32,000 nucleotides of DNA, taken from contig CAZECW010000188.1 in NCBI GenBank assembly GCA_964510585.1, positions 937 through 32,936 on the forward strand. Reading direction: 5' to 3'. The notes below the pieces were generated by a model that saw nothing but the letters and a program-made list of their open reading frames with translations, was not told where the DNA came from and searched no databases. Source of the DNA: an uncultured archaeon. Its GTDB lineage: Archaea > Asgardarchaeota > Jordiarchaeia > Jordiarchaeales > Jordiarchaeaceae. Shown in pieces: positions 380 through 31,390 of this stretch; the first letter of the stretch is position 1; every line of letters begins with the position of its first letter. The position numbers and the translations under genes are program-made.

Positions 380-1562
<1,183 letters not shown>

Positions 1563-2802: not shown

Positions 2803-2805
2803 GCC

Positions 2806-10134: not shown

Positions 10135-10632
10135 TTGAAGACGGAAATAACAAGTATCTCAAAGGAACTCCTACAGAAGTCGATAGACGCTGAGAAACTA
10201 AGGTACTGTTACGGGTGTGGTACTTGTACAGCCAGTTGCCCTGTGGCAAAGGTGATCCCTGAGAGCTTTAACCCGAGGGGGCTGCTTCAGAAAATTTTCT
10301 TTGACTTGAGCAAAACATTAGCTGAAGATGAACTTTGGCTGTGCGCTTGGTGCTACTCATGTTATGAAAGATGCCCTCAGGGAATAAAAACTACAGAAAT
10401 TTTTCTCTTAACCAGAAACCTAGCCGTTGAGAAGGGATACTTTCCCAAGCAGCCCACCAACTTAGTAAAGCAGATTTTGAAGTCTGGACGGACACTGGAG
10501 GTGACACCGGCTCGGGATAGGAAACGAGAGGCTCTCGGACTGCCGAAGATTGGGGAAACTGTTTCAGAGAAGGCGTTGAGAGAAATTAAAATTATAACTG
10601 AGAAAAGTCCAACCTGGAGGGTAAGGGGGTGA
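10135..10632 (+). CDS. hdrC: Heterodisulfide reductase subunit C-like (copy 1)
   Basis: CYGCGTCTASCP and WLCAWCYSCYERCP give 2x[4Fe-4S]. C-terminal REALGLP. Overlaps hdrB. Confidence 0.9.
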   Translation: MKTEITSISKELLQKSIDAEKLRYCYGCGTCTASCPVAKVIPESFNPRGLLQKIFFDLSKTLAEDELWLCAWCYSCYERCPQGIKTTEIFLLTRNLAVEKGYFPKQPTNLVKQILKSGRTLEVTPARDRKREALGLPKIGETVSEKALREIKIITEKSPTWRVRG

Positions 10633-11519
10633 ATCTGGAATATTCGCTTTTTCCAGGATGTGTGTCTTCTGCCCGAGAATTTAGCTGCGAAATTTCTGCT
10701 CGGAAGGTTTTTGAAGTTTTAAATGTGGAACTCTACGATGTGGAGGATTTTACTTGTTGCATGCCTGCCTGTTTGGTACATTCCTTTGATTATGCTACTG
10801 GACTTGCACTAACTTCAAGAAATCTCTGTGTTGCCGACGAGTTTGATAGAGATATTTTGACACTTTGCGTTAGCTGTTATGGTAATCTTTGGAGAGCCAA
10901 AAAACTCATGTCTGAAAATGGAGACCTTAGACGTAGGGTGGATGAGCTCTTAGCTAGCATAGGTAGATCTTACCAAGGCAAAGTGGGCATTAAACATTCA
11001 ATCACTGCCCTATACGAAGACATAGGTCCTAAAAACCTAAAAAACCAGGTTTCTAAACCCCTTAGGGGAATCAAAGCCGCTCCTTTTTATGGTTGCCATC
11101 TTATTCGGCCTAGAGAATACTTGTTCTTTGATGATGCAGAGTTCCCCGAAAAGCTTGATGAGCTTATCAATGTTACGGGGGCTACCAGCGTCCTGCATAG
11201 GGAGAGGACAGGATGTTGCATAGGTTGTGGGAGCTTTTTTGGTGAGGTGGCGGAGGAAGCCGCCCTAAGATTAAGTGTAGATATTCTAGAGAGCGCGCTG
11301 GAGGCTAAGGCGGATTGTGTGGTTGTGACGTGCCCTTACTGTTTTCTCCAGATTGAGATGGGTCAGCTTCTTTTTAAGAGGAGGACGGGAGAATCATACA
11401 ATGTACCTGTGCTTAATTACACAGATTTGTTGGGGTTAGCGCTGGGGATTGAACCCCGAGAACTGGGAATGAATATCCATAAAATAGATCCATCTCCGCT
11501 TCTTGAAAAGATTAAGTAA
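10629..11519 (+). CDS. hdrB: Heterodisulfide reductase subunit B-like (copy 1, divergent CCG motifs)
   Basis: PGC, TCCMPAC, CVSC, YGCH, GCCIGC and CPYC form two CCG domains. Confidence 0.9.
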   Translation: MNLEYSLFPGCVSSAREFSCEISARKVFEVLNVELYDVEDFTCCMPACLVHSFDYATGLALTSRNLCVADEFDRDILTLCVSCYGNLWRAKKLMSENGDLRRRVDELLASIGRSYQGKVGIKHSITALYEDIGPKNLKNQVSKPLRGIKAAPFYGCHLIRPREYLFFDDAEFPEKLDELINVTGATSVLHRERTGCCIGCGSFFGEVAEEAALRLSVDILESALEAKADCVVVTCPYCFLQIEMGQLLFKRRTGESYNVPVLNYTDLLGLALGIEPRELGMNIHKIDPSPLLEKIK

Positions 11520-11535
11520 ATTGGGAAGAGGGAGA

Positions 11536-12876
11536 GTGATTCGTCTGGAAAAAGTTAGCTCGGTTACTGTCATTGGTGGTGGAGTTGCTGGAATACAGGC
11601 AGCATTAGAACTGGCGAATTTAGGAATGCTTGTTTATTTGGTTGAGGAAAATCCCAGTATCGGGGGGCGGATTATTGAACTTAACTGTTCTTCCTGCCGC
11701 CTTGAAGTTCCTATGGATTGTTCCATCTGTCCTGTTATACCTAAAATAGTTGAGTGCTACCACCATCCAAATATTAAGATTCTTACAAACGCCGAAATTA
11801 TGGGTATTTCTGGTTCTGCTGGAAACTTCCAGATAAATGTTTTAAAAAAGCCACGTTTCATTAATGAAGACAAATGCACTGCGTGCGGTGCCTGTACCGA
11901 AAAGTGCCCAGTTGAGATTTTTGATGCATTTAATATGGTTAAAGGAAGGAAGAAGGCTATCCACTTTCCCCTCCCTCAAGCATTTCCTCAGGTTCCAGTT
12001 ATTGATAGAGAGAATTGCTTGCATTTTAGGAGTGGAACCTGCGAAAAATGTTCAGAGGTCTGCCCTACTACGGCAATAAATTTCAATGATGAAGATATGA
12101 TAATTGGAGTTAAAAGTGAAGCTATAATTCTTGCTACGGGGCTTTCTCTTTTTGATCCAAGCGGAATAAGGGAATATGGGTACAAGAGATACAAGAATGT
12201 CATCACCATTCTTGACCTTGAACAAATGACTAGTATACACGGCCCCACGGGAGGTAAAATTGTTAGGATTTCAGACAAAAAAGAGCCAAAAAGTATAGCC
12301 TTCATTCAATGCGTGGGGTCAAGAAGCAGAAGGACAAATAACAATTTCTGCTCTGGAGTATGTTGCATGTACACTGCTAAGGACGCTGCCCTAGTAAAAA
12401 TTTTAAAACCGGAAACAGAAGTGTATGTTTTCTACATTGATCTCCGAGTCTTTGGGAAAGGTTACCAAGAACTTTTCAACAAAGTTAGAAACAGTCTAGG
12501 TGTGAAATATATTAGGGGCCGTCCAGGGGGAATATGGGAAGACCCGAAAACAAGGGACCTTATTATTAGTTTTGAAAACACGCTCACCCAGAGGGTGGAG
12601 AAGTTGAGGGTGGATATGGTGGTTTTATCTCCTGCCTTACTGCCTCATCCTAATAATAGGAAACTGGCTGAATTTTTAGGCCTGGAACTAGATGAACATG
12701 GTTTCTTTAAAAGTCCAAATCCAGTGTCGCAACCTTTTGACACCACCATAAAAGGCGTTTTTACCTGTGGTTACTGTAGGGGACCCAGAGGAATATCTGA
12801 ATCTGCCACTCAAGCTAGTGCCGCCGCGGGAAGGGTTACTGAAACCATTACTTTAGCAAAAATGGGGAGAAATTAA
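11536..12876 (+). CDS. hdrA: HdrA-like flavoprotein half lacking N- and C-terminal domains (FAD plus inserted ferredoxin)
   Basis: IGGGVAG, CTACGACTEKCP, CEKCSEVCP and QCVGSR..FCSGVCC. The ORF opens at TTG 11503; GTG 11536 after GAGGGAG is preferred. Confidence 0.88.
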   Translation: MIRLEKVSSVTVIGGGVAGIQAALELANLGMLVYLVEENPSIGGRIIELNCSSCRLEVPMDCSICPVIPKIVECYHHPNIKILTNAEIMGISGSAGNFQINVLKKPRFINEDKCTACGACTEKCPVEIFDAFNMVKGRKKAIHFPLPQAFPQVPVIDRENCLHFRSGTCEKCSEVCPTTAINFNDEDMIIGVKSEAIILATGLSLFDPSGIREYGYKRYKNVITILDLEQMTSIHGPTGGKIVRISDKKEPKSIAFIQCVGSRSRRTNNNFCSGVCCMYTAKDAALVKILKPETEVYVFYIDLRVFGKGYQELFNKVRNSLGVKYIRGRPGGIWEDPKTRDLIISFENTLTQRVEKLRVDMVVLSPALLPHPNNRKLAEFLGLELDEHGFFKSPNPVSQPFDTTIKGVFTCGYCRGPRGISESATQASAAAGRVTETITLAKMGRN

Positions 12877-12878
12877 GC

Positions 12879-14573
12879 ATGAGTGAAGCTAACCTGAACC
12901 AAGAGCCGAGAATTGGAATATTCCTATGCGATTGCGGAACAAATATCAGTAGCATCATTGATGTTCCTCAAGTCATTGAAGCTTCAAAAGGGATATCTGG
13001 GGTTAAATTTGTGGAGAGAGATAGCTCACTCTGCTCCAGCGCTGGAACAAAAAAGATAAGGGAAACTATAGAGAGGAGCGGCGTAGACCGAGTTGTCTTC
13101 GCAGGTTGCTCACCCAAAAACTATGGTTCACTTTTCGAATCTGTTTGTCAAAAAGCAGGGATAAACAGGTATCTTGTTGCCTTTGCAAACATCAGGGAGC
13201 AGTGCGCCTGGGCACATCAGGACAGGCCAAAGGAAGCCACCATAAAGGCTATTAATACTGTGCAAATGGCCGCGGCGAGACTTCAAAAATCGGAGCCCCT
13301 GCAAGAATTGGAAATAGAGGTACACCCCTCCACACTGATTATTGGAGGTGGCATATCGGGGATGACCGCAGCCCTCTGCTTAGCCAATCAGGGCTTCAGC
13401 GTACTATTAGTGGAGAGGGAGCCCGACATTGGTGGCATGTTAAACAAACTTTATAAATTGTATCTTACCAATCAGGAAGTTTCAGAAATTCTGAATCCAG
13501 TTATCCAGTCGGTGAGAAACCATAAAAACATCAGAATCCTCACATCGGCATCTGTAAGGGAGGTAGAAGGATACTTCGGTGACTTTGAAGTTACAATTTC
13601 TGTTAATGGGGGAACCGAAAAATTTAGGGCGGGAACCATAATTCTGGCAACTGGAGCAGGGACATTTGAACCATTTGGAATGTACGGTTATGGGAAACAT
13701 GAGGGAGTTGTTACCCAGCTTGAATTGGAGCAAATTCTAAAACAAGGGAAGCTGAAACATTTAGAAAAAGTGGTTATGATACAATGCGTGGGAGCCCGGG
13801 AAGAAAAGGGATTAACCTACTGTTCCCGAATATGCTGTATGGTTGCAATTAAAAACGCCACTCTGATAAAGAAATTGTATCCCGACTGTGAGGTTTACAT
13901 CATTTACCGCGATCTGCAAACCTACGGTAAGGAGAACGAGGAGTACCAGTCAAAGGCAAGAGAGCTGGGAATAAGATTTATAGAATATACTCCGGAGCGC
14001 CGCCCAGAAGTATTCCCCAACGGAAATGGAAAAGTAGGGGTGAGAGTTTATCACGCTTTGTTGGGAGAAACCTTAACCATTAATAGTGATTTGGTTGTCC
14101 TATCCACTCCGCTCATCCCCAACGCGGATGGAAAAGAAATTGCAAAAATTCTCAAAGTCCCTTTGGGCCCCGATGGCTTCTTCAAAGAAGCTTATATGGA
14201 AATGCGATCAACAGCCTTCGGTGTTAATGGCATCTATGTCTGTGGAACTGCCCAGGGACCCAAAAGTATTGATGAGAGTATAACCCAAGCATACGCCGCA
14301 GCCGCTCTAGCAGCAATCCCCATGCAACAGAAAAAAGTGAAGATACCAGCCATGACCGCTGAGGTTAATGAAGAGTTATGCATTGGATGCCAACTCTGCC
14401 TGGATCTTTGCCCAGTCCACGCCATCACCTTTGCGGAAGGAAAATCCATGGTAATAGAAGCCATATGCCGAGGTTGCGGTACATGCGCCGCTGCTTGTCC
14501 CTCCAAAGCAATAGCCGTGAAGGGCTTCAAGGATGAACAGATACTTGCGGAGGTGGAGGCAGCCCTTAAATAA
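12879..14573 (+). CDS. hdrA: HdrA-like flavoprotein half (N-terminal cluster domain, FAD, C-terminal ferredoxin; no inserted ferredoxin)
   Basis: LCDCG..GCSP..NIREQCAW, IGGGISG, QCVGAR..YCSRICC, CIGCQLCLDLCP and CRGCGTCAAACP. Confidence 0.9.
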   Translation: MSEANLNQEPRIGIFLCDCGTNISSIIDVPQVIEASKGISGVKFVERDSSLCSSAGTKKIRETIERSGVDRVVFAGCSPKNYGSLFESVCQKAGINRYLVAFANIREQCAWAHQDRPKEATIKAINTVQMAAARLQKSEPLQELEIEVHPSTLIIGGGISGMTAALCLANQGFSVLLVEREPDIGGMLNKLYKLYLTNQEVSEILNPVIQSVRNHKNIRILTSASVREVEGYFGDFEVTISVNGGTEKFRAGTIILATGAGTFEPFGMYGYGKHEGVVTQLELEQILKQGKLKHLEKVVMIQCVGAREEKGLTYCSRICCMVAIKNATLIKKLYPDCEVYIIYRDLQTYGKENEEYQSKARELGIRFIEYTPERRPEVFPNGNGKVGVRVYHALLGETLTINSDLVVLSTPLIPNADGKEIAKILKVPLGPDGFFKEAYMEMRSTAFGVNGIYVCGTAQGPKSIDESITQAYAAAALAAIPMQQKKVKIPAMTAEVNEELCIGCQLCLDLCPVHAITFAEGKSMVIEAICRGCGTCAAACPSKAIAVKGFKDEQILAEVEAALK

Positions 14574-14596
14574 GGATTAAGAAGAGGTTAGCAAAA

Positions 14597-15025
14597 ATGG
14601 AGGAAGGAGAGGAAACAAGGAAGTTTGAGCCCAAAATATTAGCTTTTACCTGCAATTGGAGCAGTTACTCCAGTGCTGACCAGGCGGGAATAAGCAGAAC
14701 ATTTTATCCGCCCAATGTTCAGATAATTAGAGTTATGTGTGCTGGTCGAGTGGATCCACTATTTGTGGTGAAGGCTTTCTTAAATGGGGCTGATGGGGTG
14801 ATCATTGCTGGATGCCACCCTAACTATTGTCGATATAGTGGGGGAAATAGACAAGCAGAAATCAGAGTCAAATTTTTGAAAATGCTCATGGAAGAGATTG
14901 GTGTTGACCCGGCGCGGCTGCGGATAGAATGGATATCTGCTATGGAGGGTGGAAGATTCGCACAGGTAGTTCAGGAAATGGTTGGAGAACTTAAAAAGAT
15001 GGGACCATTACTTTTAAGAAAATAA
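14597..15025 (+). CDS. mvhD: MvhD-like [2Fe-2S] adaptor (copy 1)
   Basis: FTCNWSSY, RVMCAGRVD, GADGVIIAGCHPNYC and RLRIEWISAMEG. Confidence 0.92.
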   Translation: MEEGEETRKFEPKILAFTCNWSSYSSADQAGISRTFYPPNVQIIRVMCAGRVDPLFVVKAFLNGADGVIIAGCHPNYCRYSGGNRQAEIRVKFLKMLMEEIGVDPARLRIEWISAMEGGRFAQVVQEMVGELKKMGPLLLRK

Positions 15026-15040
15026 TGGGAGGTAGACTGC

Positions 15041-16342
15041 TTGGATGGGAAAGAGGGTGTTCTAATAATAGGTGGAGGCATAGCGGGAATCCAGGCCGCA
15101 CTAGATGTAGCCGATCAGGGAGTAAAAGCCTATGTAGTTGAAAGTACGCCCAGTGTGGGTGGACATATGGCTATGTTGGATAAGACTTTCCCCACACTTG
15201 ACTGCTCAGCTTGTATCCTCACTCCAAAAATGGTGGATGTGGGCAGGCATCCCAATGTTGAGCTTCTAACTTATTCCGAGGTAAGAAAAGTTAAGAGGGA
15301 GGGTAGAGGTTTTGAAGTAGAGATTGTGAAGAAGCCGAGATACGTTGACATATCCAAGTGTACGGGGTGCGGGGTGTGTGCTAGATACTGCCCAGTAGAA
15401 GTTTCTGACGATTTCAATGCAGGAATGGATGTTCGGAAGGCGATTTATGTGCCTTTCCCCCAGGCAGTTCCACTAAAATACACTATAGATGAAGAGCATT
15501 GTATTAGGTGTGAGCTCTGTAAAAGGATATGTGAATCCATAGGGGCTGGAGCGGTAAACTTTGATCAGGTGGCTGAGGAGGTTAACCTCAATGTGGGGGC
15601 GATTATTATTGCGACTGGCTATAAACCTTTTGACGTTAGACAAAAGAAGGCGTATGGCTACGGAAAATATCCGAACGTTTTAACGGCCTTGGAGCTTGAG
15701 AGATTACTCTCCGCCGCCGGACCAACTGCTGGACATATTTTGAGACGCTCAGATGGCTGTATACCTAAGAGGGTTGCTTTTGTTCAGTGTGTAGGTTCAA
15801 GAGACTCACACCACGGCTATCCATACTGCTCCAGAGTCTGTTGCATGTATGCCATAAAGGACAGTATACTGCTAAAAGAGCATATACCTGATGTTGATGT
15901 TACCATCTTTTACATGGATATTAGAACCTATGGTAAAGGCTTTGAAGAACTATATCAGAGGGCGAAGGAGGAGTTCAAGGTTCGATTCAGGCGGGGAAGG
16001 GTGGCAAGAATTTACGAGATTCCTGAAACCCACAACCTGGTAGTGAGGGTTGAAGACACTGAGACCGGAGAGATTTTACAGGAAGAATTTGAAATGGTGG
16101 TTCTTTCTGTGGGTTTAGCACCAGCAGACGGAATAGCAGAGCTGAGCAAAATTCTGGAAGTGCCTCTGGACGAGTATGGTTACATAGAGGGAGCAGATGC
16201 AAAGATTGATACTGTTTCAACAAAAGTTCCGGGTGTTTTTGTAGCGGGAACAGCTTTGAGTCCCAAGGATGTCCCAGATAGTGTATCTGAAGCCAGCGCG
16301 GCGGCTATGAAGGCGGTAACGTTCCTGAGAGGGAGGAAGTAG
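15041..16342 (+). CDS. hdrA: HdrA-like flavoprotein half lacking N- and C-terminal domains
   Basis: [43 protein letters not shown] and QCVGSR..YCSRVCC. TTG start with GGAGGT at 15028-15033. Confidence 0.92.
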   Translation: MDGKEGVLIIGGGIAGIQAALDVADQGVKAYVVESTPSVGGHMAMLDKTFPTLDCSACILTPKMVDVGRHPNVELLTYSEVRKVKREGRGFEVEIVKKPRYVDISKCTGCGVCARYCPVEVSDDFNAGMDVRKAIYVPFPQAVPLKYTIDEEHCIRCELCKRICESIGAGAVNFDQVAEEVNLNVGAIIIATGYKPFDVRQKKAYGYGKYPNVLTALELERLLSAAGPTAGHILRRSDGCIPKRVAFVQCVGSRDSHHGYPYCSRVCCMYAIKDSILLKEHIPDVDVTIFYMDIRTYGKGFEELYQRAKEEFKVRFRRGRVARIYEIPETHNLVVRVEDTETGEILQEEFEMVVLSVGLAPADGIAELSKILEVPLDEYGYIEGADAKIDTVSTKVPGVFVAGTALSPKDVPDSVSEASAAAMKAVTFLRGRK

Positions 16343-16343
16343 T

Positions 16344-18293
16344 ATGGAGGAAGAATTACGTGTTGGGTGTTACATTTGCCATTGTGGACTTAACATTGCA
16401 GGAGTAATTGATGTGGAAAAGGTGGCGGAAGCCACGGGAAAACTTCCGAACGTAGTGATTGCGAGGCACTACGTTTACATGTGTTCGGAGCCCGGTCAGG
16501 AACTAATAAAAAAGGATATCAAAGACTACAATTTGAACAGGGTTGTAGTGGCTTCCTGCTCTCCCCAAATGCATGAATCCACATTCCGCTCCGTTGTGGA
16601 GGAGGCTGGTTTAAACCGGTATCTTTTCGAAATGGCTAATCTTCGAGAGCAATGTTCATGGGCCCATGCAAATAATCCCGTGAAGGCCACTGAGAAGGCG
16701 AAGGACATATTGAGAATGGCTGTTGCTAAGGTTCGCCTGCTTCAACCCTTAGAGAAGAGGGAGGTTCAGGTTAAACCCGCAACTCTGATTGTGGGTGGAG
16801 GAATAACTGGAATCCAAGCAGCTTTGGAATTGGCTAATAGGGGATTTTCCACTTATCTTGTTGAGAAGTTACCTTACCTTGGGGGAAGAGTGGCTCAGTT
16901 AAACAGGGTAATTTTAACCAATGAGAGAGCCTCAGAAATTTTAAAACCAATGTTAAACGCTTTAACAGGGAATCCGAACATTGAAGTGTTCACCAACACC
17001 GAAATTGAGGAAATAGGTGGCTACATTGGCAACTTTGAAATAAAGCTGAAGATAGGACCCCGTTTCGTTAACCAGAAATGCAACTTGTGCGGGAAATGCC
17101 TGGAGGTGTGCCCCGTAGAGGTACCAGACGAATTTAACTTTGGATTAAACAACAGAAAGGCCATATATATTCCCCACAGTGACTCTGTGCCCAGAATTCC
17201 TACTATTGATGGGGCTAACTGTACACGCTGTGGGGAGTGCATCAAGGTCTGCGAGCAAAATGCTATTTCTTTGGACAGCGAACCACAAAACAAAAACATT
17301 TCGGTGGGAACAATTATTCTCGCCACCGGCTATGATCCCTATTTGCCCCAAGGCGAGTATGGCTTTGGAGAGTATGAAGATGTAATAACTCAGTTCCAAC
17401 TGGAAAGAATGCTCAGCAACAATGGTCCCACCAATGGGCGGTTAGTAAAACCTTCCAATGGAAAGGTGCCTAGAAACGTAGTTTTTATTCTGTGTGTGGG
17501 TTCCAGAAATCCCCATAGGCAATATTGCTCCAGAGTTTGCTGCTCTGTGGCATTAAAAAACGCTATGCTCATCAAAAAAGAGTATCCTGAAACGCAGGTC
17601 TCCATTCTTTACCGAGATATCAGAAGCTTTGGTAAAGGACAGGAAGAACTTTATGGAGAGGCGCGACTAGCGGGCATAAACTTTTTCAGGTATTCACCAG
17701 ATAACCCCCCAAAGGTTTCCAGACTAGATAACTCGCAGATTCAGGTGGAGGTCTATGAATCCATACTGGGAATGAACATTGAGATTCCCGCGGATCTCCT
17801 AATTCTTGCTGAGGCTATGACTCCCCGAAAGGACTCCGCGGAGTTAGGTTCAAAAGTGGGGGTCACGCGTACACCAGATGGCTTTTTCCGTGAGGCGCAC
17901 CCTAAGCTCAAGCCCCTCGACACAAATTCTGAAGGAATATACCTTGCTGGCGCCGCCCAGTTCCCCAAAGATATCACCGAGTGTATAGTTCAAACATGCG
18001 GGGCAGCTGCGAGGGCCTCAATTCCTATGTCTAAGGGTAAAGTGGACGTGGAGCCCATAGTAGCCTCGGTGAACGAAGATCTTTGTATCGAGTGCGGAAC
18101 CTGCCAGAGTATATGTCCTTATGGAGCAATAAAGAAGGGTGAGAATGGAAAAGCGCAAGTCACAGAGATTTTATGTAAGGGTTGTGGTTCCTGCGCCGCA
18201 AGCTGCCCAGCAAGGGCCATTACAATATTTCATTTTACAGATGAGCAAATCCTAGCTCAATCACTCGCCGCATTAGGGAGGGGAGAACCATGA
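16344..18293 (+). CDS. hdrA: Near full-length HdrA lacking the DCxxC motif
   Basis: ICHCG..MCS..ASCSP..NLREQCSW, VGGGITG, inserted ferredoxin (CNLCGKCLEVCP, CTRCGECIKVC), YCSRVCC, and C-terminal CIECGTCQSICP and CKGCGSCAASCP. Confidence 0.93.
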   Translation: MEEELRVGCYICHCGLNIAGVIDVEKVAEATGKLPNVVIARHYVYMCSEPGQELIKKDIKDYNLNRVVVASCSPQMHESTFRSVVEEAGLNRYLFEMANLREQCSWAHANNPVKATEKAKDILRMAVAKVRLLQPLEKREVQVKPATLIVGGGITGIQAALELANRGFSTYLVEKLPYLGGRVAQLNRVILTNERASEILKPMLNALTGNPNIEVFTNTEIEEIGGYIGNFEIKLKIGPRFVNQKCNLCGKCLEVCPVEVPDEFNFGLNNRKAIYIPHSDSVPRIPTIDGANCTRCGECIKVCEQNAISLDSEPQNKNISVGTIILATGYDPYLPQGEYGFGEYEDVITQFQLERMLSNNGPTNGRLVKPSNGKVPRNVVFILCVGSRNPHRQYCSRVCCSVALKNAMLIKKEYPETQVSILYRDIRSFGKGQEELYGEARLAGINFFRYSPDNPPKVSRLDNSQIQVEVYESILGMNIEIPADLLILAEAMTPRKDSAELGSKVGVTRTPDGFFREAHPKLKPLDTNSEGIYLAGAAQFPKDITECIVQTCGAAARASIPMSKGKVDVEPIVASVNEDLCIECGTCQSICPYGAIKKGENGKAQVTEILCKGCGSCAASCPARAITIFHFTDEQILAQSLAALGRGEP

Positions 18294-22000: not shown

Positions 22001-22068
22001 TAACCATAGAGCATTTTAATGATAAACAGATTCTGGCTCAGATTAGAGCTTTGCTGGGAGGTGGATAA
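19057..22068 (+). CDS. hdrA: Tandem (double-FAD) HdrA-like fusion protein, 1003 aa
   Basis: First module [19 protein letters not shown], two ferredoxin motifs and YCSAVCC. Then [13 protein letters not shown], a second FAD motif IGGGLSG, CSRVCC and a C-terminal ferredoxin. Confidence 0.93.
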
Positions 22069-22069
22069 T

Positions 22070-23902: not shown

Positions 23903-23909
23903 ACCCGCA

Positions 23910-24254
23910 ATGTCTGAAGATTTAAGAAAAAGACTGGAGGCGGCTGTTGGAGTTCTGGGAGATATTCGTGTCAGATGGCTAATTGGGCGAAGCCAAGCCC
24001 TATTGGAATCAGGAACCATAACCAAAGAAGGGTTAGAGCAACTTATGAGGAAAATTATGAGAGAGGAGCTGGAAAGATGGCTTATTATGAATGAAATCGA
24101 AAGACAGGGACCACTATCAGTCAAAGACCTTTCCGGGGCAACCCGACTTCCAGAACAAACAGTGGTGAAGCACCTACTAGCTCTAAGAAGAAATGGGCGG
24201 ATTACCTTCGCGGGTGAGAAAGAGAACATGCACCTATATGATTTGGTGAGATAA
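23910..24254 (+). CDS. Stand-alone helical-linker plus winged-helix protein, paralogue of the C-terminus of 18290-19060
   Basis: DIRVRWLIG..ITKE..EELERWLI..GPLSVKDLSGATRLPEQTVVKHLLALRRNGRI. ATG 23910 after GGGAGG is preferred to 23886, which overlaps hdrB. Confidence 0.82.
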   Translation: MSEDLRKRLEAAVGVLGDIRVRWLIGRSQALLESGTITKEGLEQLMRKIMREELERWLIMNEIERQGPLSVKDLSGATRLPEQTVVKHLLALRRNGRITFAGEKENMHLYDLVR

Positions 24255-24288
24255 AGCAGAGAATAAAATTGAAGAGTGGTGATTCAAA

Positions 24289-24834
24289 ATGACTGAAGCA
24301 AATTCTTCTGATGAAAAGCAAACAGTCATCAAACTCCAAGATTTGGATACTAGTCTACAGGAGGAGATTAGCAAAATTCCGGGATGCGAAAAACTTATGC
24401 TCTGCTTCCAGTGTGGCACATGCAGTGCCGACTGTCCAGTTGGGAGACACCTCAATGAGTACAAGCCTAGGTTAATAGCTATGATGACCAAGCTTGGAAT
24501 GAAGCAAGCGCTCTTTCAGGGAGATTTATTGTGGCTGTGCACCCAGTGTTACACGTGCCTTGAACGTTGCCCCCAGAATGTGGAGCTGGCGGAGATAATT
24601 TCCGCTCTGCGAGGAATCGCGGCCAGGGAAGGTTACCTACATCCCTCTTTGAAGAAGGTTATTGAAGCCCTGGCCAATCATGGTTACATTTACGAGATAA
24701 CTGAATTCATAGAGGAAGATAGGGAAATGAGGGAGCTCCCACCTGTTCCCAAAGTTAACATTGGCGAAGTTAGAAAAATTATGAGAATGACAGGAATAGA
24801 CAAACTTGTAGGAATAGAACTGGAGGAGGACTAA
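24289..24834 (+). CDS. hdrC: HdrC-like (copy 3)
   Basis: CFQCGTCSADCP, WLCTQCYTCLERCP and REMRELPP. Confidence 0.93.
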   Translation: MTEANSSDEKQTVIKLQDLDTSLQEEISKIPGCEKLMLCFQCGTCSADCPVGRHLNEYKPRLIAMMTKLGMKQALFQGDLLWLCTQCYTCLERCPQNVELAEIISALRGIAAREGYLHPSLKKVIEALANHGYIYEITEFIEEDREMRELPPVPKVNIGEVRKIMRMTGIDKLVGIELEED

Positions 24835-24840
24835 AAATTT

Positions 24841-25707
24841 ATGAGGTACGCATTTTTTGTGGGGTGCACAACATTAGCCAGGCTTCCAAGCTACGAGGTT
24901 TCTACAAGAAAAGTAGCCGAGGCTTTGGGTGTGGAACTCTTGGATATGGAGGGAGCGGGATGTTGCGGAACCACTTATTTAAAATGTATAGAACCCAGAA
25001 CGGCGCTTGCCTTGGCTGCTCGGAACATATCCATAGCGGAGGATATGGGGGTTAACATTGTCACTTTGTGTAACGGTTGCACAGAGGTTCTCACAGATGC
25101 CAACAACACGCTAAAAGAAGAAGGGGAACTCAGAGAAGATGTGAACAGCATTCTTGCAGAGGTGGATCGGGAGTTTAGGGGGAAAGTGGAGGTTAAACAT
25201 TTTGTGCGAATGTTTCTTGAGGATTTGGGAATCGATAAAATTCGCGCCCGTGTGTCAAACCCTCTGGAGGGTTTAAGAGTGGCGGTGCATTACGGATGCC
25301 ACTTATTAAAGCCTTTCAAGATAATGAATTTTGATGACCCTGAAGACCCCACTTCCCTAGATGAACTAGTCAACATTACGGGGGCAGTGAGTGTAGATTA
25401 TCCGGGTAAGCTGGACTGTTGCTCCGCCCCACTGCTGACGATAAAACGAAGAAACGAGTTGGCCACTGAAATAGCTAGGGAAAAACTATCAACAGTTAAG
25501 AAGTATGCCGATATAATGATTACCGTTTGCCCATTTTGCTACTTGATGTATGAGCAGAGTCAAATGCCCCCAAACAATCCCATCGATATTCCCATAGTGC
25601 ATTATTCTCAGCTCCTAGGTTTAGCGATGGGAATAGACTATCAAGATCTAGCCCTCAACGAAAACCGCATAGACGCCTCGGTAATAAAAAATTTTCAAAA
25701 TAGGTAA
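24841..25707 (+). CDS. hdrB: HdrB-like (copy 3)
   Basis: VGC, GCCG, CNGC, HYGCH, DCCS and CPFC. Confidence 0.93.
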   Translation: MRYAFFVGCTTLARLPSYEVSTRKVAEALGVELLDMEGAGCCGTTYLKCIEPRTALALAARNISIAEDMGVNIVTLCNGCTEVLTDANNTLKEEGELREDVNSILAEVDREFRGKVEVKHFVRMFLEDLGIDKIRARVSNPLEGLRVAVHYGCHLLKPFKIMNFDDPEDPTSLDELVNITGAVSVDYPGKLDCCSAPLLTIKRRNELATEIAREKLSTVKKYADIMITVCPFCYLMYEQSQMPPNNPIDIPIVHYSQLLGLAMGIDYQDLALNENRIDASVIKNFQNR

Positions 25708-25882
25708 CGTTTTAAAAACTATACGGACACCGCCAACATCAAAACAACTTATTCAAAGGATGTAAGCTTATCATCGGTTAACCGTCTCTCCCCAAACCTG
25801 CTTTGTGACACTCTTCAGAAACAATATTTATTAGAAGTTTTGGAAAGGAATGGATGAAGTCGCACAAGTATACGTATGGACT

Positions 25883-26407
25883 TTAAATTTTTTTGGTAGA
25901 GCTCTTCAAATTTTTTTCGCTTTTCAGGTTTGGCTTTTGCTCTCTTCTGAGGAAGTCTCCCAGGTCCAAAATGTTTTTTACCACTACGCCTTTTTCTGCT
26001 TCTTGAGGGTTTTGTTTTATCACGCCGAAGCCCAAACATTCACCATACTTGTTTAGGATTAATGTGTAATCGCCCTTTCTTGTTGAGCCCTCAACGCGTG
26101 TGATGCCTTCTTTGAATATGTCCCTTCCGCATATGAAAAGCCAAGCCGTCTTATCGTTTACGAAGATTTTGTTTTCGACTTTCTCGGCGATCATTGAAAT
26201 TAGGGGAAAGCTTGGAAGGAAAAAGTCGTTTTTTAACTCTCCGAGCAGAACACCAGCATAATAATATTTTCTGGGAATTCTAACAGCTAAATCTTTCAGA
26301 GTGTCGTTTAGCAGGAAGAATTTTTCACCCATCCAATCGATTAAAGATTCATTTAAGTCTATTTGTACGCCAAACTTTTCCAGGAAAAGTTTCAAGGGCT
26401 TCACCAA
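25883..26407 (-). CDS. nip7: NIP7-like PUA-domain ribosome biogenesis protein
   Basis: YAGVLLGEL, AWLFICGRDIF, ILNKYGECLGFG and KNILDLGDFLRRE match archaeal NIP7/UPF0113. Translationally coupled to the m5C methyltransferase gene. Confidence 0.82.
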   Translation of the reverse strand: MVKPLKLFLEKFGVQIDLNESLIDWMGEKFFLLNDTLKDLAVRIPRKYYYAGVLLGELKNDFFLPSFPLISMIAEKVENKIFVNDKTAWLFICGRDIFKEGITRVEGSTRKGDYTLILNKYGECLGFGVIKQNPQEAEKGVVVKNILDLGDFLRREQKPNLKSEKNLKSSTKKI

Positions 26408-26408
26408 T

Positions 26409-27296
26409 TTATCCCCCCGCTTTTCTTAGTTTGCATATGAAAAAGCCTTGGGTTTCTTCGCTTGGCCATATTCGTCTACAATTCTTTATCAGGCTGTCTA
26501 ATTTTTCGCCAAAAATTTTTGTGGGAGATTCCTCGCCATAACACTTTATTGGTACTGTTTCGAGTTTGAGGTTTTCCACAGCCCAGTTTATGTTGAACTC
26601 ATTTTCCTCCGGCTCCAGCGAGCATGTGGAATAAACTATTTCGCCGTCATCCTTGAGGATTTTTGCGGCTTCAGCTAAGATTTCCCTCTGCAACCTCACG
26701 TTCTTCCCAACGTCTGTAATTGTTCTCTTCTCAAACCATTGCTCGTCGGTGGCGAAGTTTCCGGAGCAAGGGACATCGAGAAGTATTCTGTCAAATTTTA
26801 AACCCAGTTTCGACGCCTGCGCCGCGTCCAAATGATATACAAGGGTGTTTTTTACTCTGCAGCGTTCCAGCTGGTTGGCAAGGGCGTTAAGCCTTCGCCT
26901 CTTAACATCCAAAGCCACTATAACCCCGGTGTTATCCATTAGATCGGCGAGCTGAATGGTTTTTCCACCGGGAGCTGCACAAGCATCCAGAACCACACTA
27001 TATTTCAAGTCTGTGAAGAGTGTTGCGGGGATCTGCGCCGCTGCTTCCTGAATTGAGTAGTATCCCAAAAGATATTCAAATGTAGCCCCTATGCTGAACT
27101 CTGCCTCCGTAACCCAATAGCCATTTTCTAGGAATGGGATTTTCTCAAGCTTGAAACCCAAACCTTCAAGCCTATCAACAATGTTAACATCTTTAGCGTT
27201 CATGGTGTTTATCCTAATGGCTTGTTTTGGGGCGACTTCTCTAAACTGCCAACCCAACTCTCTGTAGCGACTGGTAAAAAACTCCTTCCCAGACAT
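26409..27296 (-). CDS. RsmB/NOP2/Sun-family RNA (cytosine-5)-methyltransferase
   Basis: QEAAAQIP, VLDACAAPGGKT, ILLDVPCSG and YSTCSLEPEENE; both catalytic Cys are present. Confidence 0.93.
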   Translation of the reverse strand: MSGKEFFTSRYRELGWQFREVAPKQAIRINTMNAKDVNIVDRLEGLGFKLEKIPFLENGYWVTEAEFSIGATFEYLLGYYSIQEAAAQIPATLFTDLKYSVVLDACAAPGGKTIQLADLMDNTGVIVALDVKRRRLNALANQLERCRVKNTLVYHLDAAQASKLGLKFDRILLDVPCSGNFATDEQWFEKRTITDVGKNVRLQREILAEAAKILKDDGEIVYSTCSLEPEENEFNINWAVENLKLETVPIKCYGEESPTKIFGEKLDSLIKNCRRIWPSEETQGFFICKLRKAGG

Positions 27297-27659
27297 TAAA
27301 CCAACAAAGGCAGCAAGCTATTAAAAGCTTTGCGAATGTGAAGCTGAAGGAATGAAAATAATTTCGGAACCGGTTCAAGGCACGAAACTATTTAGTTATT
27401 GGGAAGGGAGAAAAATCTGTATTCCGTGTAGATATAGGTCTGTGGACTAACTTCGATGTGAAAATATATTTTTCATAAAGGATTTTTTGGGTAGTCATCA
27501 TAATTTTTGAGGCGTACCTTTTTTTGGGAAATGTTTATTTTTGTAAAAGGAAAGATTAGACACCAATTGGCTAGGGAAGTAATCAGAAACAATAAAAAAA
27601 GGGTAGAAATTATTTGTCCATGGATACCCGTCTGAAACATTTTGGACATGGTGGTGTGC

Positions 27660-28169
27660 ATGGCGGGAGCTGAAGCAGAAAAAACAGTTGTAGATGCGGA
27701 AAATCTGGACTCTTCATTTCTGAGAAAAGTAATTAAACATCCAGGCGGCGAACAGATTCTTGTCTGTTTCCAGTGTGGAGTCTGCAGCTCCAGCTGTCCT
27801 TTAAGACTGATAAATCCTGAGTATAATCCTAGAAAAATTGTGAAAAAAACCATTCTGGGTATGAAGGATCAAGTGCTTTCCAGCGATTTTGTCTGGTTCT
27901 GCGCGGATTGCAATGCATGTACCGAACGTTGCCCTCAGGGAGTTAATCCTTCTGAGGTTATGAAGGCTATTAAGAATGTGGCTGTGGAGGAGGGAATCGT
28001 TCCAGCGGCGATTAAGAAAATTGTGGAGAACTTAGAGAAGCATGGGAGGGTTTATCCCTTGGAAGAGTTTACTCAGGAGGAGAGGGAGATGCTGGATTTA
28101 CCTGAACTTGAACCAGATGTTAAAATTTTCAAGATTGACAGAAAAAAACTGCTGGGTGAACATGCTTGA
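27660..28169 (+). CDS. hdrC: HdrC-like (copy 4)
   Basis: CFQCGVCSSSCP, WFCADCNACTERCP and REMLDLP. The ORF opens at TTG 27642; ATG 27660 after GGTGGTG is preferred. Confidence 0.93.
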   Translation: MAGAEAEKTVVDAENLDSSFLRKVIKHPGGEQILVCFQCGVCSSSCPLRLINPEYNPRKIVKKTILGMKDQVLSSDFVWFCADCNACTERCPQGVNPSEVMKAIKNVAVEEGIVPAAIKKIVENLEKHGRVYPLEEFTQEEREMLDLPELEPDVKIFKIDRKKLLGEHA

Positions 28170-29050
28170 GTGAGAGAGAGTTTGCATTGTTTTTGGGATG
28201 CACCATACCTGTGAGATGCTTGGGTTACGAGGTGGCTACAAGGAGGGTGGCGGAGGAGCTGGGAATTAAACTTGTTGATCTTAGTTTTTCCTGCTGCGGT
28301 TATCCCTTAAAAAATGTAGATGTGATTGCCGCTAAATCTATGGCTACAGCGAACCTGGCTCTCGCAGAATCTAAGAACCTCAATATTCTTACTATATGTA
28401 GTGCTTGCGCCGGAACTTTGACCGAGGCTAGTGTTAATAGAGAGAATCCGGTGGGTGAACAAGTTAAAAAGGAGTTGGGAAAGCAGGGGTTAACCTTTAA
28501 GGGGTTGGTTTGGGTCAAGCACTTTGTGAGATACCTGTATGAGGATTACGGTGTGGATAAGATAAGGGAACATGTGAAAAACCCTCTGAAAAACCTTAGG
28601 GTGGCTATACACTATGGCTGTCATTATCTGAGACCGTCTGAAATATATGATGAATTTGATGATCCTGAACACCCAAAGAGCGCGAAAGAGATAATTGAGG
28701 CTTTGGGTGCCACAGTGGTTAATTACAGGGGTCAGCTCGATTGTTGTGGTGGGGGCACTTTGACTTTCGATCAGAAGTTGGGTGCTATATTGGCTAAGAA
28801 GAAACTGGACAATGTCAAGAAGGCCAACGTGGATGCCTTGGTTTTATTCTGTCCCTTCTGCTCCATAATGTATGACGGCCACCAAAGGTTTATTGAGGAA
28901 CAATTCGGTTGCGAGCCCTACAACATTCCGGTTCTCTTCTTGCCTCAGATTATGGGCTTAGCGTTTGGCATAGATCCAAAGGAGTTGGGATTTGAATACA
29001 ACAAAGTAGATGTCCAACCCCTACTGGACAAAATAGGGGTGAAGTGGTGA
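28166..29050 (+). CDS. hdrB: HdrB-like (copy 4)
   Basis: LGC, SCCG, CSAC, HYGCH, DCCG and CPFC. Confidence 0.93.
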   Translation: MSEREFALFLGCTIPVRCLGYEVATRRVAEELGIKLVDLSFSCCGYPLKNVDVIAAKSMATANLALAESKNLNILTICSACAGTLTEASVNRENPVGEQVKKELGKQGLTFKGLVWVKHFVRYLYEDYGVDKIREHVKNPLKNLRVAIHYGCHYLRPSEIYDEFDDPEHPKSAKEIIEALGATVVNYRGQLDCCGGGTLTFDQKLGAILAKKKLDNVKKANVDALVLFCPFCSIMYDGHQRFIEEQFGCEPYNIPVLFLPQIMGLAFGIDPKELGFEYNKVDVQPLLDKIGVKW

Positions 29051-29056
29051 TTTATT

Positions 29057-31390
29057 ATGATAGGCGTCTTCATTTGTGAGTGTGGTGGAAACATCGGAGA
29101 CGTAGTTGACGTCAACGCTGTAAAGGAAGCCATCCAAAAGATTCCCGATGTTAAAACCGTGAGAATCAATCGTTTCCTATGCTCCAAACTGGGCCTAAAA
29201 ATGATAGTAGACTCTGTCAAAAAACAGAACCTAGACCGGGTGGTGGTTGCGTCGTGTTCCCCACATATGCATGAAGAAACCTTTAGAGAAACAGTGGTTG
29301 AAGCGGGACTAAACCCCTACATGTTTGTACACACAAATATTCGGGAGCAGGACTCCTGGGTCACGAAGGATAAAAGGAAGGCTACAGAAAAGGCCATAGC
29401 CATAATATCAGGTGCGGTGGGCAGAGCAAGGAAATTGGAGCCCCTCCAAAAAACTAGAGTAGAAATCTCCAAGGATGTTATGGTTATCGGCGGCGGAATA
29501 GCGGGAATAACAGCGGCACTACAGTTGGCGAACTCCGGATACCACGTTATAATGGTGGAAAAAAAACCCAGCATAGGAGGCAGGATGGCTCAGCTAAGCA
29601 AGGTTTTTCCCACCCTAGACTGTGCACCCTGCATCCTCAGTCCAAGAATGGCAGACGTGGACAAAAACCCAAACATAACACTACTAACCAGCTCAGAGGT
29701 GGAAAAGGTATCCGGTGGACCGGGAAACTATGAGGTGAAGGTTAGGATTAAGCCCCGAGGAGTGGACGTTGAGAAGTGTTTAAGGTGTGGCAAGTGTGAG
29801 AAGGTCTGCGAAGTGGAGGTTCCAGACGAGTATGAGGCGGGACTATACACCCGCAAAGCAATATACTTGCCATTCGCACAAGCTGTTCCCGCCGCTTACG
29901 CCATCGACTTTGAAAACTGTAGAAAATGCGGAACCTGCCAAAAAGAGTGCCCCGCCGAAGCCATAAACATCAACCAGGAGGAGAGAGTGGAGACCTTCAA
30001 TGTGGGGGCAATAATAGTTACTACTGGCTACGACCTCCTAGATAAGGGTGAGATAGAGAGATACAAGGTTGACAAGGAATCCACCATAACTTCGCTCCAG
30101 CTAGAGAGACTTATAGAGAATGAATTGGCAGCAGGGGAAGTTCTTAAAAATTCCAAGGGTAAACGCATAAAAGATGTGGCATTCATTTTGTGTGTAGGCT
30201 CCAGGAATCCACATAAGGGGGTTTCCTACTGCAGCAAGGTCTGCTGTCCCTACGCGGTTAAGGAAGCGATACTGCTGAAGAAGACTTTGCCCTATCTCCG
30301 CATATGGATTTACTACATTGACTTGAGGATGGCTGGCCGGGGATACGAGGAACTCTACAGGCAGGCGCGGGAAATGAACATAAACTTCATACACGGAAAG
30401 CCCGCAGAAGTGAGTGTAGATCCAGACTCTGGAAGGCTTCAGATTGTATCTGAAGATATTGACACGGGCCAAATAATAAGGAACTCTTTGGATCTCATTG
30501 TTTTATGCCCAGCAATGATTCCTTCAAGCGACCTGGCAGAATTGGCGGGTAAACTCAACATATCCACGGGTGAGGACGGCTTTATCGCAGAAAAACACAT
30601 TAAACTTAATCCAGTATCCACCCTGAGGGAAGGCATATATGCTGCGGGAACAGCCCTTGGCCCCAAGGATATCAGAGAATCCGTGGTAGACGCCAGATCC
30701 ACTGCAGCCCAAGCAATAGAATTCTTGGGAGAAGGATACAAGGACATTTCACCAATAAAAGCTAGACTGGTAGGTGAATGCCGAGGTGTGGGGGAGTGTG
30801 TGAGAGTATGTCCTCATAATGCCATAACATTAAACGAAAAGACGGGTAAAGCGGAGATAAACATATTGGCCTGTAATGGTTGTGGAGCCTGCGTCCCCGC
30901 GTGTCCTAATAATGCTTTACAATTGGCTCATTACACAAAGGAGCAAATATTGGAGGAAGTAAAGGGACTTCTATCTGTGCCCACAGAGGATATTAGGATA
31001 ATTGGATTCTTTGGGGACTCTACTGCTTACCCTGCGGCAGATGCTGCCGGCGTCTCGCGGCTAAACTATCCTCCGAACCTGCTGATTGTAAGAGTGCCAT
31101 CCACCGCGCTTATAGATACAGATACGTTGATAAAAACTTTGGAGATGGGTGCAGATGGAATTATGCTTTGTGAAAATGGAGACACCAAGGAGGGAGAGTT
31201 AACAGAGGAGAACGTTAAGAAAACCCAGGCGGAGCTCGAGAGAAGGGGGATAGAAAAGGAGAGAGTGTTTTACCAGCCCCTAGCAATTCCGGCGTACAAG
31301 TCTTTGCCCTACTTGGTGGAAACATACCTCTCAAGGATTAAAAAAATTGGGAAAGTAGGTGCCAAAACTATGCCCCTCTCTAAAGGCTAG
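29057..31390 (+). CDS. hdrA: Full-length HdrA fused to a degenerate MvhD-like domain (QmoB-like architecture)
   Basis: ICECG..ASCSP..NIREQ, IGGGIAG, LDCAPC, inserted ferredoxin, YCSKVCC and a C-terminal ferredoxin. The last ~130 aa are MvhD-like (YPAADAAGVSRLNYPPN, MGADG) without the Cys ligands. Confidence 0.92.
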   Translation: MIGVFICECGGNIGDVVDVNAVKEAIQKIPDVKTVRINRFLCSKLGLKMIVDSVKKQNLDRVVVASCSPHMHEETFRETVVEAGLNPYMFVHTNIREQDSWVTKDKRKATEKAIAIISGAVGRARKLEPLQKTRVEISKDVMVIGGGIAGITAALQLANSGYHVIMVEKKPSIGGRMAQLSKVFPTLDCAPCILSPRMADVDKNPNITLLTSSEVEKVSGGPGNYEVKVRIKPRGVDVEKCLRCGKCEKVCEVEVPDEYEAGLYTRKAIYLPFAQAVPAAYAIDFENCRKCGTCQKECPAEAININQEERVETFNVGAIIVTTGYDLLDKGEIERYKVDKESTITSLQLERLIENELAAGEVLKNSKGKRIKDVAFILCVGSRNPHKGVSYCSKVCCPYAVKEAILLKKTLPYLRIWIYYIDLRMAGRGYEELYRQAREMNINFIHGKPAEVSVDPDSGRLQIVSEDIDTGQIIRNSLDLIVLCPAMIPSSDLAELAGKLNISTGEDGFIAEKHIKLNPVSTLREGIYAAGTALGPKDIRESVVDARSTAAQAIEFLGEGYKDISPIKARLVGECRGVGECVRVCPHNAITLNEKTGKAEINILACNGCGACVPACPNNALQLAHYTKEQILEEVKGLLSVPTEDIRIIGFFGDSTAYPAADAAGVSRLNYPPNLLIVRVPSTALIDTDTLIKTLEMGADGIMLCENGDTKEGELTEENVKKTQAELERRGIEKERVFYQPLAIPAYKSLPYLVETYLSRIKKIGKVGAKTMPLSKG

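Follow-up and report, generated by a model that had tools for sequence, protein, structure and literature searches.

A dense heterodisulfide reductase-like gene block in a Jordarchaeon and its possible organization into fixed electron-bifurcating units

Eighteen genes for heterodisulfide reductase (Hdr)-like proteins and their partners lie close together in the DNA of an uncultured hot-spring archaeon of the family Jordiarchaeaceae (Asgardarchaeota), and the question raised by this locus is whether they supply a pool of interchangeable subunits or a set of fixed enzymes. The DNA analyzed, hereafter the window, is a 32,000-nt stretch (GenBank assembly GCA_964510585.1, contig CAZECW010000188.1, positions 937–32,936) that makes up nearly all of its contig (C188), within a genome of 3.78 Mb that is 96% complete. 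Gene identities were taken from an open reading frame (ORF) listing together with Pfam and NCBIfam scans of the window proteins. The block lies entirely on the plus strand and consists of a 15-gene operon (10135–25707) and a 3-gene operon (27642–31390). In total it encodes four HdrC, four HdrB, six HdrA-type genes with seven flavin modules, three MvhD, and one fused MvhD-like domain, which agrees in content and order with the initial annotation of this DNA, made from the sequence alone. The order within the larger operon is C1, B1, A′1, A1, D1, A′2, A2, D2 (with a winged helix-turn-helix [wHTH] domain), A′A3 (fused), D3, C2, B2, H, C3, and B3. Adjacent genes of this operon overlap or are separated by ≤34 nt, and the DNA upstream of C1 is rich in AT and contains a TATA-like box and a GGAGG sequence. 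The initial annotation had interpreted the block as a combinatorial set of bifurcating or confurcating complexes acting on several disulfides. We favor, with modest confidence, a different arrangement, in which the genes encode four fixed bifurcating or confurcating units, with the 15-gene operon (units I to III) acquired from Bathyarchaeia, with units II and III forming a core supercomplex, with H-modules serving as docking elements, and with the electron donor encoded elsewhere.

The domain anatomy of HdrA bears on the choice of partners. We aligned the seven flavin modules to HdrA4, which itself aligns to residues 6–650 of the solved HdrA structure (5ODC_A; the source of the E356 and K409 numbering). 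All seven modules retain the GGGxxG motif, the four-cysteine cluster of the thioredoxin reductase (TrxR) domain, and the equivalents of E356 and K409. The full set of four domains together with Cys197 occurs only in HdrA4, and each of the other six modules lacks either Cys197 or the terminal domains. The A′ modules carry a DCxxC motif, equivalent to Cys197, and an inserted ferredoxin domain with eight cysteines, and are without the N-terminal and C-terminal domains. Conversely, the A modules (A1, A2, and the C-terminal half of A′A3) possess both terminal domains and have lost DCxxC; the inserted ferredoxin domain is also lost in A1 and A3 and is kept in A2. Thus, HdrA′1 (11503–12876; 457 amino acids [aa]) comprises the TrxR/FAD domain with a DCSIC site and the inserted ferredoxin domain, and matches only positions 137–561 of the HdrA2 model, whereas its neighbor HdrA1 (12879–14573; 564 aa) has the N-terminal Fe–S domain, a TrxR/FAD domain lacking the Cys197 site, and the C-terminal ferredoxin. 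HdrA′2 (15041–16342; 433 aa) likewise combines a DCSAC site with the inserted ferredoxin domain, and HdrA2 (16344–18293; 649 aa) has four HdrA domains with the Cys197 site replaced (LTNERASE), scoring 793 bits over positions 1–640 of NF040770. The split pairs A′1/A1 and A′2/A2 lie 1 to 2 nt apart, and A′A3 (19057–22068; 1003 aa) is a single polypeptide in which residues ∼1–440 form the A′ half and residues ∼441–1003 the A half. Because Cys197 of one subunit completes the N-terminal cluster of its partner in the solved HdrA, the complementary motifs suggest that each A′/A pair should physically form an obligate heterodimer with one complete electron path.

These asymmetric HdrA′/HdrA heterodimers, two split and one fused, would each form the center of one of units I to III. 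Unit I would consist of C1B1-A′1A1-D1, in which HdrC1 (10135–10632; 165 aa) matches Fer4_8, HdrB1 (10629–11519; 296 aa) has two CCG domains, and MvhD1 (14597–15025; 142 aa) matches FlpD with 165 bits. Unit II would consist of A′2A2 and the long MvhD termed D2H (18290–19060), with the free-standing H gene (23886–24254; 122 aa, or 114 aa in the public gene call, which starts at 23910), HdrC3 (24289–24834; 181 aa), and HdrB3 (24841–25707; 288 aa), which closes the 15-gene operon, tentatively assigned to it. Unit III would be A′A3-D3-C2B2, comprising the fused HdrA, MvhD3 (22061–22498; 145 aa; FlpD 190 bits), HdrC2 (22495–23016; 173 aa), and HdrB2 (23003–23902; 299 aa). Judging from relatives, MvhD3 probably starts at 22061, although its ORF could open at 22019. 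Unit IV, a putative separate HdrA2B2C2-like enzyme, would consist of HdrC4 (27642–28169; 175 aa), HdrB4 (28166–29050; 294 aa), and HdrA4 fused to an MvhD-like domain (29057–31390; 777 aa), a complete four-domain HdrA with a DCAPC site.

By analogy with Mvh–Hdr and BamDEF, electrons from a mid-potential donor would enter each unit through the [2Fe–2S] cluster of MvhD and be split at FAD. One electron would then travel via the cluster of the TrxR domain to HdrC and on to the two noncubane clusters of HdrB, where it would reduce a disulfide. The other would pass through the shared N-terminal cluster, built by A with Cys197 of A′, to the inserted ferredoxin domain of A′, the predicted low-potential exit to ferredoxin. 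The whole reaction could also run backward.

The HdrB and HdrC subunits retain the motifs that such a path would use. Ten cysteines are kept in all four HdrB proteins as two copies of the C...CC...CxxC pattern, corresponding to two noncubane cluster sites; they map onto the solved HdrB (8RVU_b), to which HdrB3 aligns across its full length. The ten core cysteines reported for each HdrB in the initial annotation were therefore borne out by both the motif check and the structural mapping. All four HdrC proteins keep two CxxCxxCxxxCP motifs. On NCBIfam, the four HdrB proteins score 259 to 298 bits with the CoB–CoM HdrB model as compared with 157 to 174 bits with SdhE. Protein identities between paralogs range from 33 to 58% across the block and from 33 to 44% among the four HdrB/HdrC pairs, and at the DNA level similarity is weak (65 to 72% over short stretches only), consistent with the divergence noted initially. 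Recent tandem amplification can be ruled out, as paralogs are 33 to 58% identical and orthologs in other phyla are closer. By sequence, the subunits are Hdr-like without being certified as CoB–CoM enzymes.

The MvhD proteins deviate from the canonical pattern in two places. MvhD1 keeps the four invariant cluster cysteines, and the fifth, noninvariant cysteine of its CxxC is replaced by serine. The MvhD-like domain of HdrA4 (residues ∼640–777) is present as first described but has lost three of the four [2Fe–2S] ligand cysteines, which are kept in the HdrA::MvhD paralogs on contigs C196, C146, and C3; this domain may be purely structural. The description of the block as Hdr-type bifurcation modules consequently stands as far as the checked cofactor motifs are intact, with the exceptions of the lost accessory cysteine in D1 and the clusterless domain of unit IV.

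D2H is 256 aa long, compared with ∼140 aa for the usual MvhD, and joins an MvhD core to a winged-helix tail of ∼115 aa, matching FlpD as well as HTH_24 and HTH_5. The AlphaFold (AF2) model of this protein, built with 46 homologs, had a predicted local distance difference test score (pLDDT) of 92.6 and a predicted template modeling score (pTM) of 0.89. In Foldseek searches of the PDB, the core superposed on 5ODC_D with a template modeling score (TM) of 0.92, and the tail showed an ArsR/SmtB-like winged-helix fold resembling HlyU, CzrA, and SmtB; only MvhD and generic ArsR/SmtB repressors were recovered. Residues of the tail are conserved over the 46 homologs. The free-standing H protein is similar to the D2H tail (31% identity over 84 aa, E 6e-10) and to the N-terminus of an FrhB-like protein encoded on contig C76 (28% identity, E 2e-11), and free H copies also occur in Bathyarchaeial and Thermoplasmata hdr arrays. 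By sequence similarity, the D2H tail and the free H gene product are one module of ∼100 aa, which we call the H-module. When 1.84 billion representative proteins were searched with a profile of this module, 269 matched at E ≤ 1e-10, and the module directly follows MvhD in 8 of 10 multidomain representatives.

Two fusion proteins place the H-module among redox domains. In the representative library, the 1737-aa protein P0148 combines HdrA, MvhD, the H-module, a ferredoxin, and a GltD/NfnB-like flavoprotein in a single polypeptide. The 478-aa protein at the end of the C76 hdr cluster (C76:15896–17332) has an N-terminal H-module followed by an FrhB/FdhB domain, a fusion that ties the module to a donor subunit. 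In class II benzoyl-CoA reductase, the wHTH domain of BamF binds the donor subunit BamI, as seen by cryo-electron microscopy (cryo-EM) (bioRxiv 10.64898/2026.04.10.717634). Because of the MvhD-linked fusions and this precedent, we favor docking over DNA binding: by analogy with BamF, the H-module probably serves to dock MvhD to the redox module that comes next. The D2H tail and the free H protein would accordingly be docking adaptors and probably not DNA-binding regulators, and D2H probably bridges units II and III into one supercomplex with two flavoproteins. Co-folding of MvhD3 with the free H protein scored 0.22 against a mark of 0.32, and nothing is drawn from it.

The arrangement of the operon is maintained in four other genomes of the genus (G001–G004). 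The 15.6-kb operon is collinear and full-length in three congeners, at 90%, 90%, and 77% nucleotide identity, its order is also found in RPF2, and in G001 it is split over three pieces. Among public loci, the nearest belongs to a Candidatus Jordarchaeia metagenome-assembled genome (MAG). Scanning for gene intactness covered G002, G003, and G004, and all 15 genes were intact in each. An identical D2H protein with the same gene surroundings is encoded in two independent assemblies, a JGI metagenome contig and a Logan assembly. Relative to the RPF2 copy, the ratio of nonsynonymous to synonymous substitution rates (dN/dS) is between 0.02 and 0.20 for 16 genes (all 15 operon genes and HdrA4), with MvhD3 at 0.018. 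Two concerns that accompanied the initial annotation were thereby excluded: chimeric assembly, by the shared gene order in G002, G003, G004, RPF2, the pieces of G001, and the JGI and Logan contigs; and relaxed selection or decay, by the dN/dS values of all genes tested.

The position of unit IV is less constant. In the window, two genes intervene between B3 and unit IV; in G002 the unit comes immediately after B3, and in RPF2 its orientation is reversed. Unit IV is thus an operon of its own that is linked to the larger one. The DNA separating B3 from C4 also varies within the genus (window 25704–28378 compared with L001 16649–19511 and L097), containing genes for a PUA protein (25883–26407, minus strand) and an RsmB/F methyltransferase (26409–27296, minus strand) here, other DNA in RPF2, and ∼160 nt in G002. 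The two genes in the window are unrelated to the block. A minus-strand ORF at 27473–27853 has no family match and is uncalled in the public annotation, so it is probably spurious.

Part of the operon recurs far outside the genus. We fetched 79 loci, all encoding relatives of the fused HdrA, and the synteny counts that follow are biased by this choice. The recurrent unit is A′-A-D(long)-A′A-D, with HdrCB upstream, downstream, or on both sides, and its hosts are Bathyarchaeia, Thermoplasmatota, other Asgard archaea, and some bacterial MAGs, representing at least five phyla. Of 78 loci, 63 have a long MvhD ahead of the fused HdrA, and the fused HdrA stands right after D-H in 70 of 75 cases. In the window, this core spans 15041–23902 and comprises seven genes, from A′2 through A2, D2H, A′A3, D3, and C2 to B2. 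Unit I and H-C3B3 are additions to the core, and similar extras (CB pairs and free h genes) are found in some Bathyarchaeial loci. In most lineages, the core has two HdrA dimers and one HdrCB. Donor genes follow the core elsewhere: MvhG, MvhA, and a maturation protease in Bathyarchaeia, and FrhB-like and AsrAB-like NAD(P)H modules in Loki-type Asgard archaea. A locus from a Methanomassiliicoccales MAG (L037; CP070739) has four consecutive fused HdrA genes of ∼1000 aa within ∼17 kb, each preceded by a long MvhD of ∼260 aa, with a short MvhD after the last and no HdrCB within the 23 kb fetched. The modularity singled out in the initial annotation is therefore widespread, as seen in the 63 of 78 loci and in Methanomassiliicoccales; the size of the set is what remains unusual.

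Phylogenetic analysis connects the operon with Bathyarchaeia. The Jordarchaeial fused HdrA is nested within Bathyarchaeia in both trees (FastTree support 98; IQ-TREE Shimodaira–Hasegawa-like approximate likelihood ratio test [SH-aLRT] values of 95 and 99). The approximately unbiased (AU) test rejects a clade of Jordarchaeial and other Asgard fused HdrA proteins (p = 4e-6); the group tested was specified with the first tree already in view. HdrB1 groups with a Bathyarchaeial upstream-CB clade, HdrB2 falls in a clade with 22 Bathyarchaeial HdrB proteins, and HdrB3 belongs to a third clade dominated by Bathyarchaeia (SH-aLRT 99 in each case). The operon was not found in the complete congener genome G005 or in the sister family f2. 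Transfer from Bathyarchaeia to the Jordarchaeial genus is the simplest reading that these data suggest, with the direction taken from nesting in unrooted trees.

The remainder of the genome contains at least seven other hdr loci, five of which are close to a recognizable partner: [NiFe] hydrogenase on contigs C20 and C3, EtfAB with an FrhB-like protein on C150, MetF on C146, and the FrhB-like protein on C76. [NiFe] hydrogenases are encoded on C20, C3, and C193, beside other hdr genes. In an HdrA paralog on C76 (13508–15253), an in-frame TGA occupies precisely the Cys197 position (DDCAIU); this paralog is probably a selenocysteine-containing HdrA, and the MvhD that follows it has two in-frame TGA codons. 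The genome encodes nine MvhD proteins, compared with 0 to 11 in 30 related genomes. The total Hdr load is typical of Asgard archaea, and it is the local concentration that stands out.

Searches of the genome for systems raised together with the initial annotation addressed possible disulfide substrates. The absence of mcr genes from the window was upheld among the scanned ORFs (mtr was not searched by family). Genome-wide, EtfAB and five GcvH-like lipoyl-carrier genes were found, none of the latter on an hdr-cluster contig or in the window. A gene for the archaeal phosphosulfolactate synthase ComA, scoring above its equivalog cut-off, adjoins a ComB-family phosphatase gene (C156:212–1767), a pair that may serve coenzyme M (CoM) synthesis or yield only sulfolactate. 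A candidate for CoM synthase (TIGR03287; MMP16-like) was rejected, being a homocysteine-type COG1900-CBS protein paired with a ferredoxin. Because mcrA and dsrC were not found, CoM-S-S-CoB is no obvious substrate, the presence of comA and comB notwithstanding.

Several observations weigh against the arrangement we favor. Every subunit scores under its NCBIfam equivalog cut-off (TIGR03288, TIGR03290, NF041778, and NF040770), as exemplified by HdrC1 (114 bits with TIGR03290, cut-off 160), HdrB1 (274 bits with TIGR03288), and HdrA4 (808 bits over the full length of NF040770, cut-off 1100). Family scans of the window ORFs identified no donor enzyme, including no MvhAG, AOR-type, or NuoEFG-type genes, and the donor would have to be encoded outside the block. 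Neither mcrA nor dsrC has a match in the 96%-complete genome, and of the CoM pathway only comA and comB were found in searches that did not extend to comC, comDE, or coenzyme B (CoB) synthesis. Both flavins of each A′/A pair keep the K409 and E356 equivalents, and the sequence is thus silent on which flavin bifurcates. The assignment of H-C3B3 to unit II is by elimination only, and the D2H tail shares its fold with ArsR/SmtB DNA-binding repressors. A hydrogenase transferred together with the operon was sought, and the Bathyarchaeial-type MvhGA has no close homolog in the genome, where the best match (39 to 42%) is the organism's own Mvh locus on C20. The locus sampling and the late naming of the AU-tested group, both described above, count on the same side.

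Four other explanations have to be weighed against these fixed units. A mix-and-match subunit pool, in which combinatorial bifurcating complexes use a different HdrB for each non-CoM/CoB disulfide, is compatible with the divergence of the four HdrB/HdrC pairs (33 to 44% identical), three of which fall in distinct ancient orthogroups that could serve different substrates, with the missing mcrA and dsrC matches, and with the five GcvH-like lipoyl carriers. This pool is nonetheless rather improbable. The genes belong to one fixed operon with overlaps or gaps of at most 34 nt, the order of which is kept in four congeners (77 to 91% nucleotide identity), the complementary A′ and A motifs set the partners, the same neighbor relations recur across phyla, and no GcvH-like gene lies on any hdr-cluster contig; moreover, HdrB1, HdrB2, and HdrB3 belong to separate Bathyarchaeial-related clades, and the fused HdrA is nested in Bathyarchaeia. 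The HdrB-like CCG proteins might alternatively pass high-potential electrons to an acceptor that is not a disulfide, such as fumarate, a quinone, or a 2-oxo or hydroxy acid. No recognized heterodisulfide system was found in the genome, and SdhE (of methylmenaquinol:fumarate reductase), TfrB, and LdhH come second among the NCBIfam matches of the four HdrB proteins. Still, CoB–CoM HdrB is by far the best match (259 to 298 bits versus 157 to 174 bits for SdhE), the ten cysteines of both noncubane sites are kept, the alignment to solved HdrB is full-length, and the block encodes no fumarate reductase flavoprotein or membrane anchor, which together make this acceptor chemistry improbable. We consider it just as doubtful that D2H and H are redox-sensing transcription factors, pairing a [2Fe–2S] MvhD sensor with an ArsR-type DNA-binding domain that acts on the hdr operon. 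ArsR/SmtB proteins are metal or redox sensors, and the tail both matches the HTH_24, HTH_5, and ArsR family models and has a predicted fold like those of HlyU, CzrA, and SmtB. Against such a role, the module is built into long redox polypeptides, where MvhD lies on one side of it and a flavoprotein or FrhB module on the other, its position in the array is fixed in several phyla, and the equivalent wHTH of BamF was seen bound to a protein subunit by cryo-EM; the pTM of 0.89 further suggests that tail and MvhD core are one rigid unit.

The remaining explanation concerns how the units would be connected. In a series arrangement, the low-potential output of A′A3 would be delivered through D2H to the A′2/A2 unit, producing two stacked bifurcations (or a double confurcation) that would reach a more negative potential and bypass free ferredoxin. 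The H-module lies between MvhD and a donor module in single polypeptides (HdrA::MvhD::H::GltD-like and the FrhB-like protein on C76), the position after D-H is occupied by the fused HdrA in 70 of 75 cases, and the core of most lineages has two HdrA dimers for one HdrCB. Coupling of two bifurcation modules is, in addition, known from class II benzoyl-CoA reductase (bioRxiv 10.64898/2026.04.10.717634). In the operon studied here, however, each of the three dimers has its own HdrCB, which fits units that work in parallel and on their own; the neighborhood encodes no acceptor enzyme of very low potential, and the synteny counts are biased by the choice of loci. On this evidence, series wiring within the operon is unlikely, though it deserves consideration. 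The broader proposal that the core, from Bathyarchaeia to Asgard archaea and some bacteria, is a single series-wired supercomplex, a two-stage Hdr/Hdr cascade with the H-module as a general MvhD plug, seems similarly doubtful; under it, the Jordarchaeon would add a third stage or a parallel unit. No description of a two-stage Hdr/Hdr bifurcation cascade was found in the literature searched.

Comparison with characterized systems indicates which features of the four fixed units are familiar. The MvhAGD–HdrABC complex of hydrogenotrophic methanogens (5ODC, 8RVU, 7BKB) has the same subunit families and cofactor motifs. Here, however, six of the seven HdrA modules are partial and complementary rather than full subunits forming homodimers, the block lacks MvhAG, the genome lacks an mcrA match, and the scores fall under the equivalog cut-offs. 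Complementary heterodimeric HdrA, in tandem or fused form, has been proposed for anaerobic methanotrophic (ANME) archaea and Moorella (Chadwick et al. 2022, PMC9012536), and type II HdrA is a named class (PMC12054007). The ANME proteins and the MetFV–HdrABC–MvhD system of Moorella share with the present locus a partner bearing the N-terminal domain and a partner bearing Cys197, both tandem and fused forms, and the clustering of several HdrA genes with MvhD and HdrBC. The half with the N-terminal domain is described as coming first in the fused ANME forms, whereas the Cys197 half comes first here (A′ then A). The Jordarchaeal operon moreover combines three such pairs, provides every pair with a separate MvhD and HdrCB, and has no FdhAB-like, MetFV, or other donors.

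In BamDEF of class II benzoyl-CoA reductase, BamE consists of an HdrA dimer fused into one chain, and the long MvhD of the module, BamF, uses its wHTH to dock a donor subunit (cryo-EM, bioRxiv 10.64898/2026.04.10.717634). Going by the published description, BamE resembles A′A3, and BamF, which is more than 100 aa longer than the usual MvhD and has a winged helix, resembles D2H. The locus differs in having separate HdrC and HdrB instead of a fused BamD (HdrD-like) protein, and no BamBC (AOR-type) or BamGHI genes are present in the window; the second FAD site of BamE has a glutamine, and both flavin sites here keep the lysine. Unit IV shares with HdrA2B2C2 of Methanosarcina acetivorans (PMC5296606) an HdrA with a C-terminal MvhD-like fusion beside HdrC and HdrB. 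An Fe2S2 cluster is reported for the M. acetivorans HdrA2, whereas the MvhD-like domain of unit IV has lost three of its four cysteines and its HdrA scores 808 bits against a cut-off of 1100. The sulfur-oxidizing sHdr–LbpA systems, with a short HdrA of ∼340 aa, the arrangement hdrC1B1A-hyp-C2B2, and an adjacent LbpA, are unlike the block, whose HdrA proteins are 433 to 1003 aa long and which has no GcvH/LbpA gene in the window.

Other features of the window lie upstream of the block. A complete-looking archaeal riboflavin operon (368–5312, plus strand) is located ∼5 kb upstream of the block and its seven FAD sites; it encodes DHBP synthase, two proteins of the lumazine synthase fold, GTP cyclohydrolase III, an amidohydrolase, a RibD C-terminal reductase, and a creatininase-family (ArfB-like) protein. 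Between this operon and the block, the minus strand carries genes at 5387–5920, 6114–6641, and 8449–8910, for a tandem pair of Ras-family small GTPases and a protein that weakly matches a longin domain (Fuz_longin_1), eukaryote-like signature proteins that are typical of Asgard archaea. An Rfam scan of the window returned no RNA family.

The module types of this locus, namely heterodimeric or type II HdrA, HdrA::MvhD fusions, and BamF-like long MvhD, are already known; clusters with several HdrA genes have been reported from ANME-1, and Asgard archaea have been reported to carry hdrA in multiple or fused copies. What is new is the size of the operon, its donor-free composition, its affinity with Bathyarchaeia, and the delineation of the conserved core and the H-module. 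Among the fetched loci, it is the largest donor-free set of complete HdrA′A-MvhD-HdrCB units, with three sets and a fourth unit. The fused HdrA and HdrB1 to HdrB3 branch with Bathyarchaeia and not with other Asgard archaea, suggesting that such sets move between phyla. The seven-gene core and the ∼100-aa putative docking module could serve as targets for expression and structure determination to learn how HdrA dimers are chained, and the value of the locus is that of a well-defined test case rather than of a new principle. The role of Hdr-type bifurcation in archaea that do not make methane extends to the Asgard archaea, the closest prokaryotic relatives of eukaryotes, and the energy metabolism of this group feeds models of eukaryogenesis.

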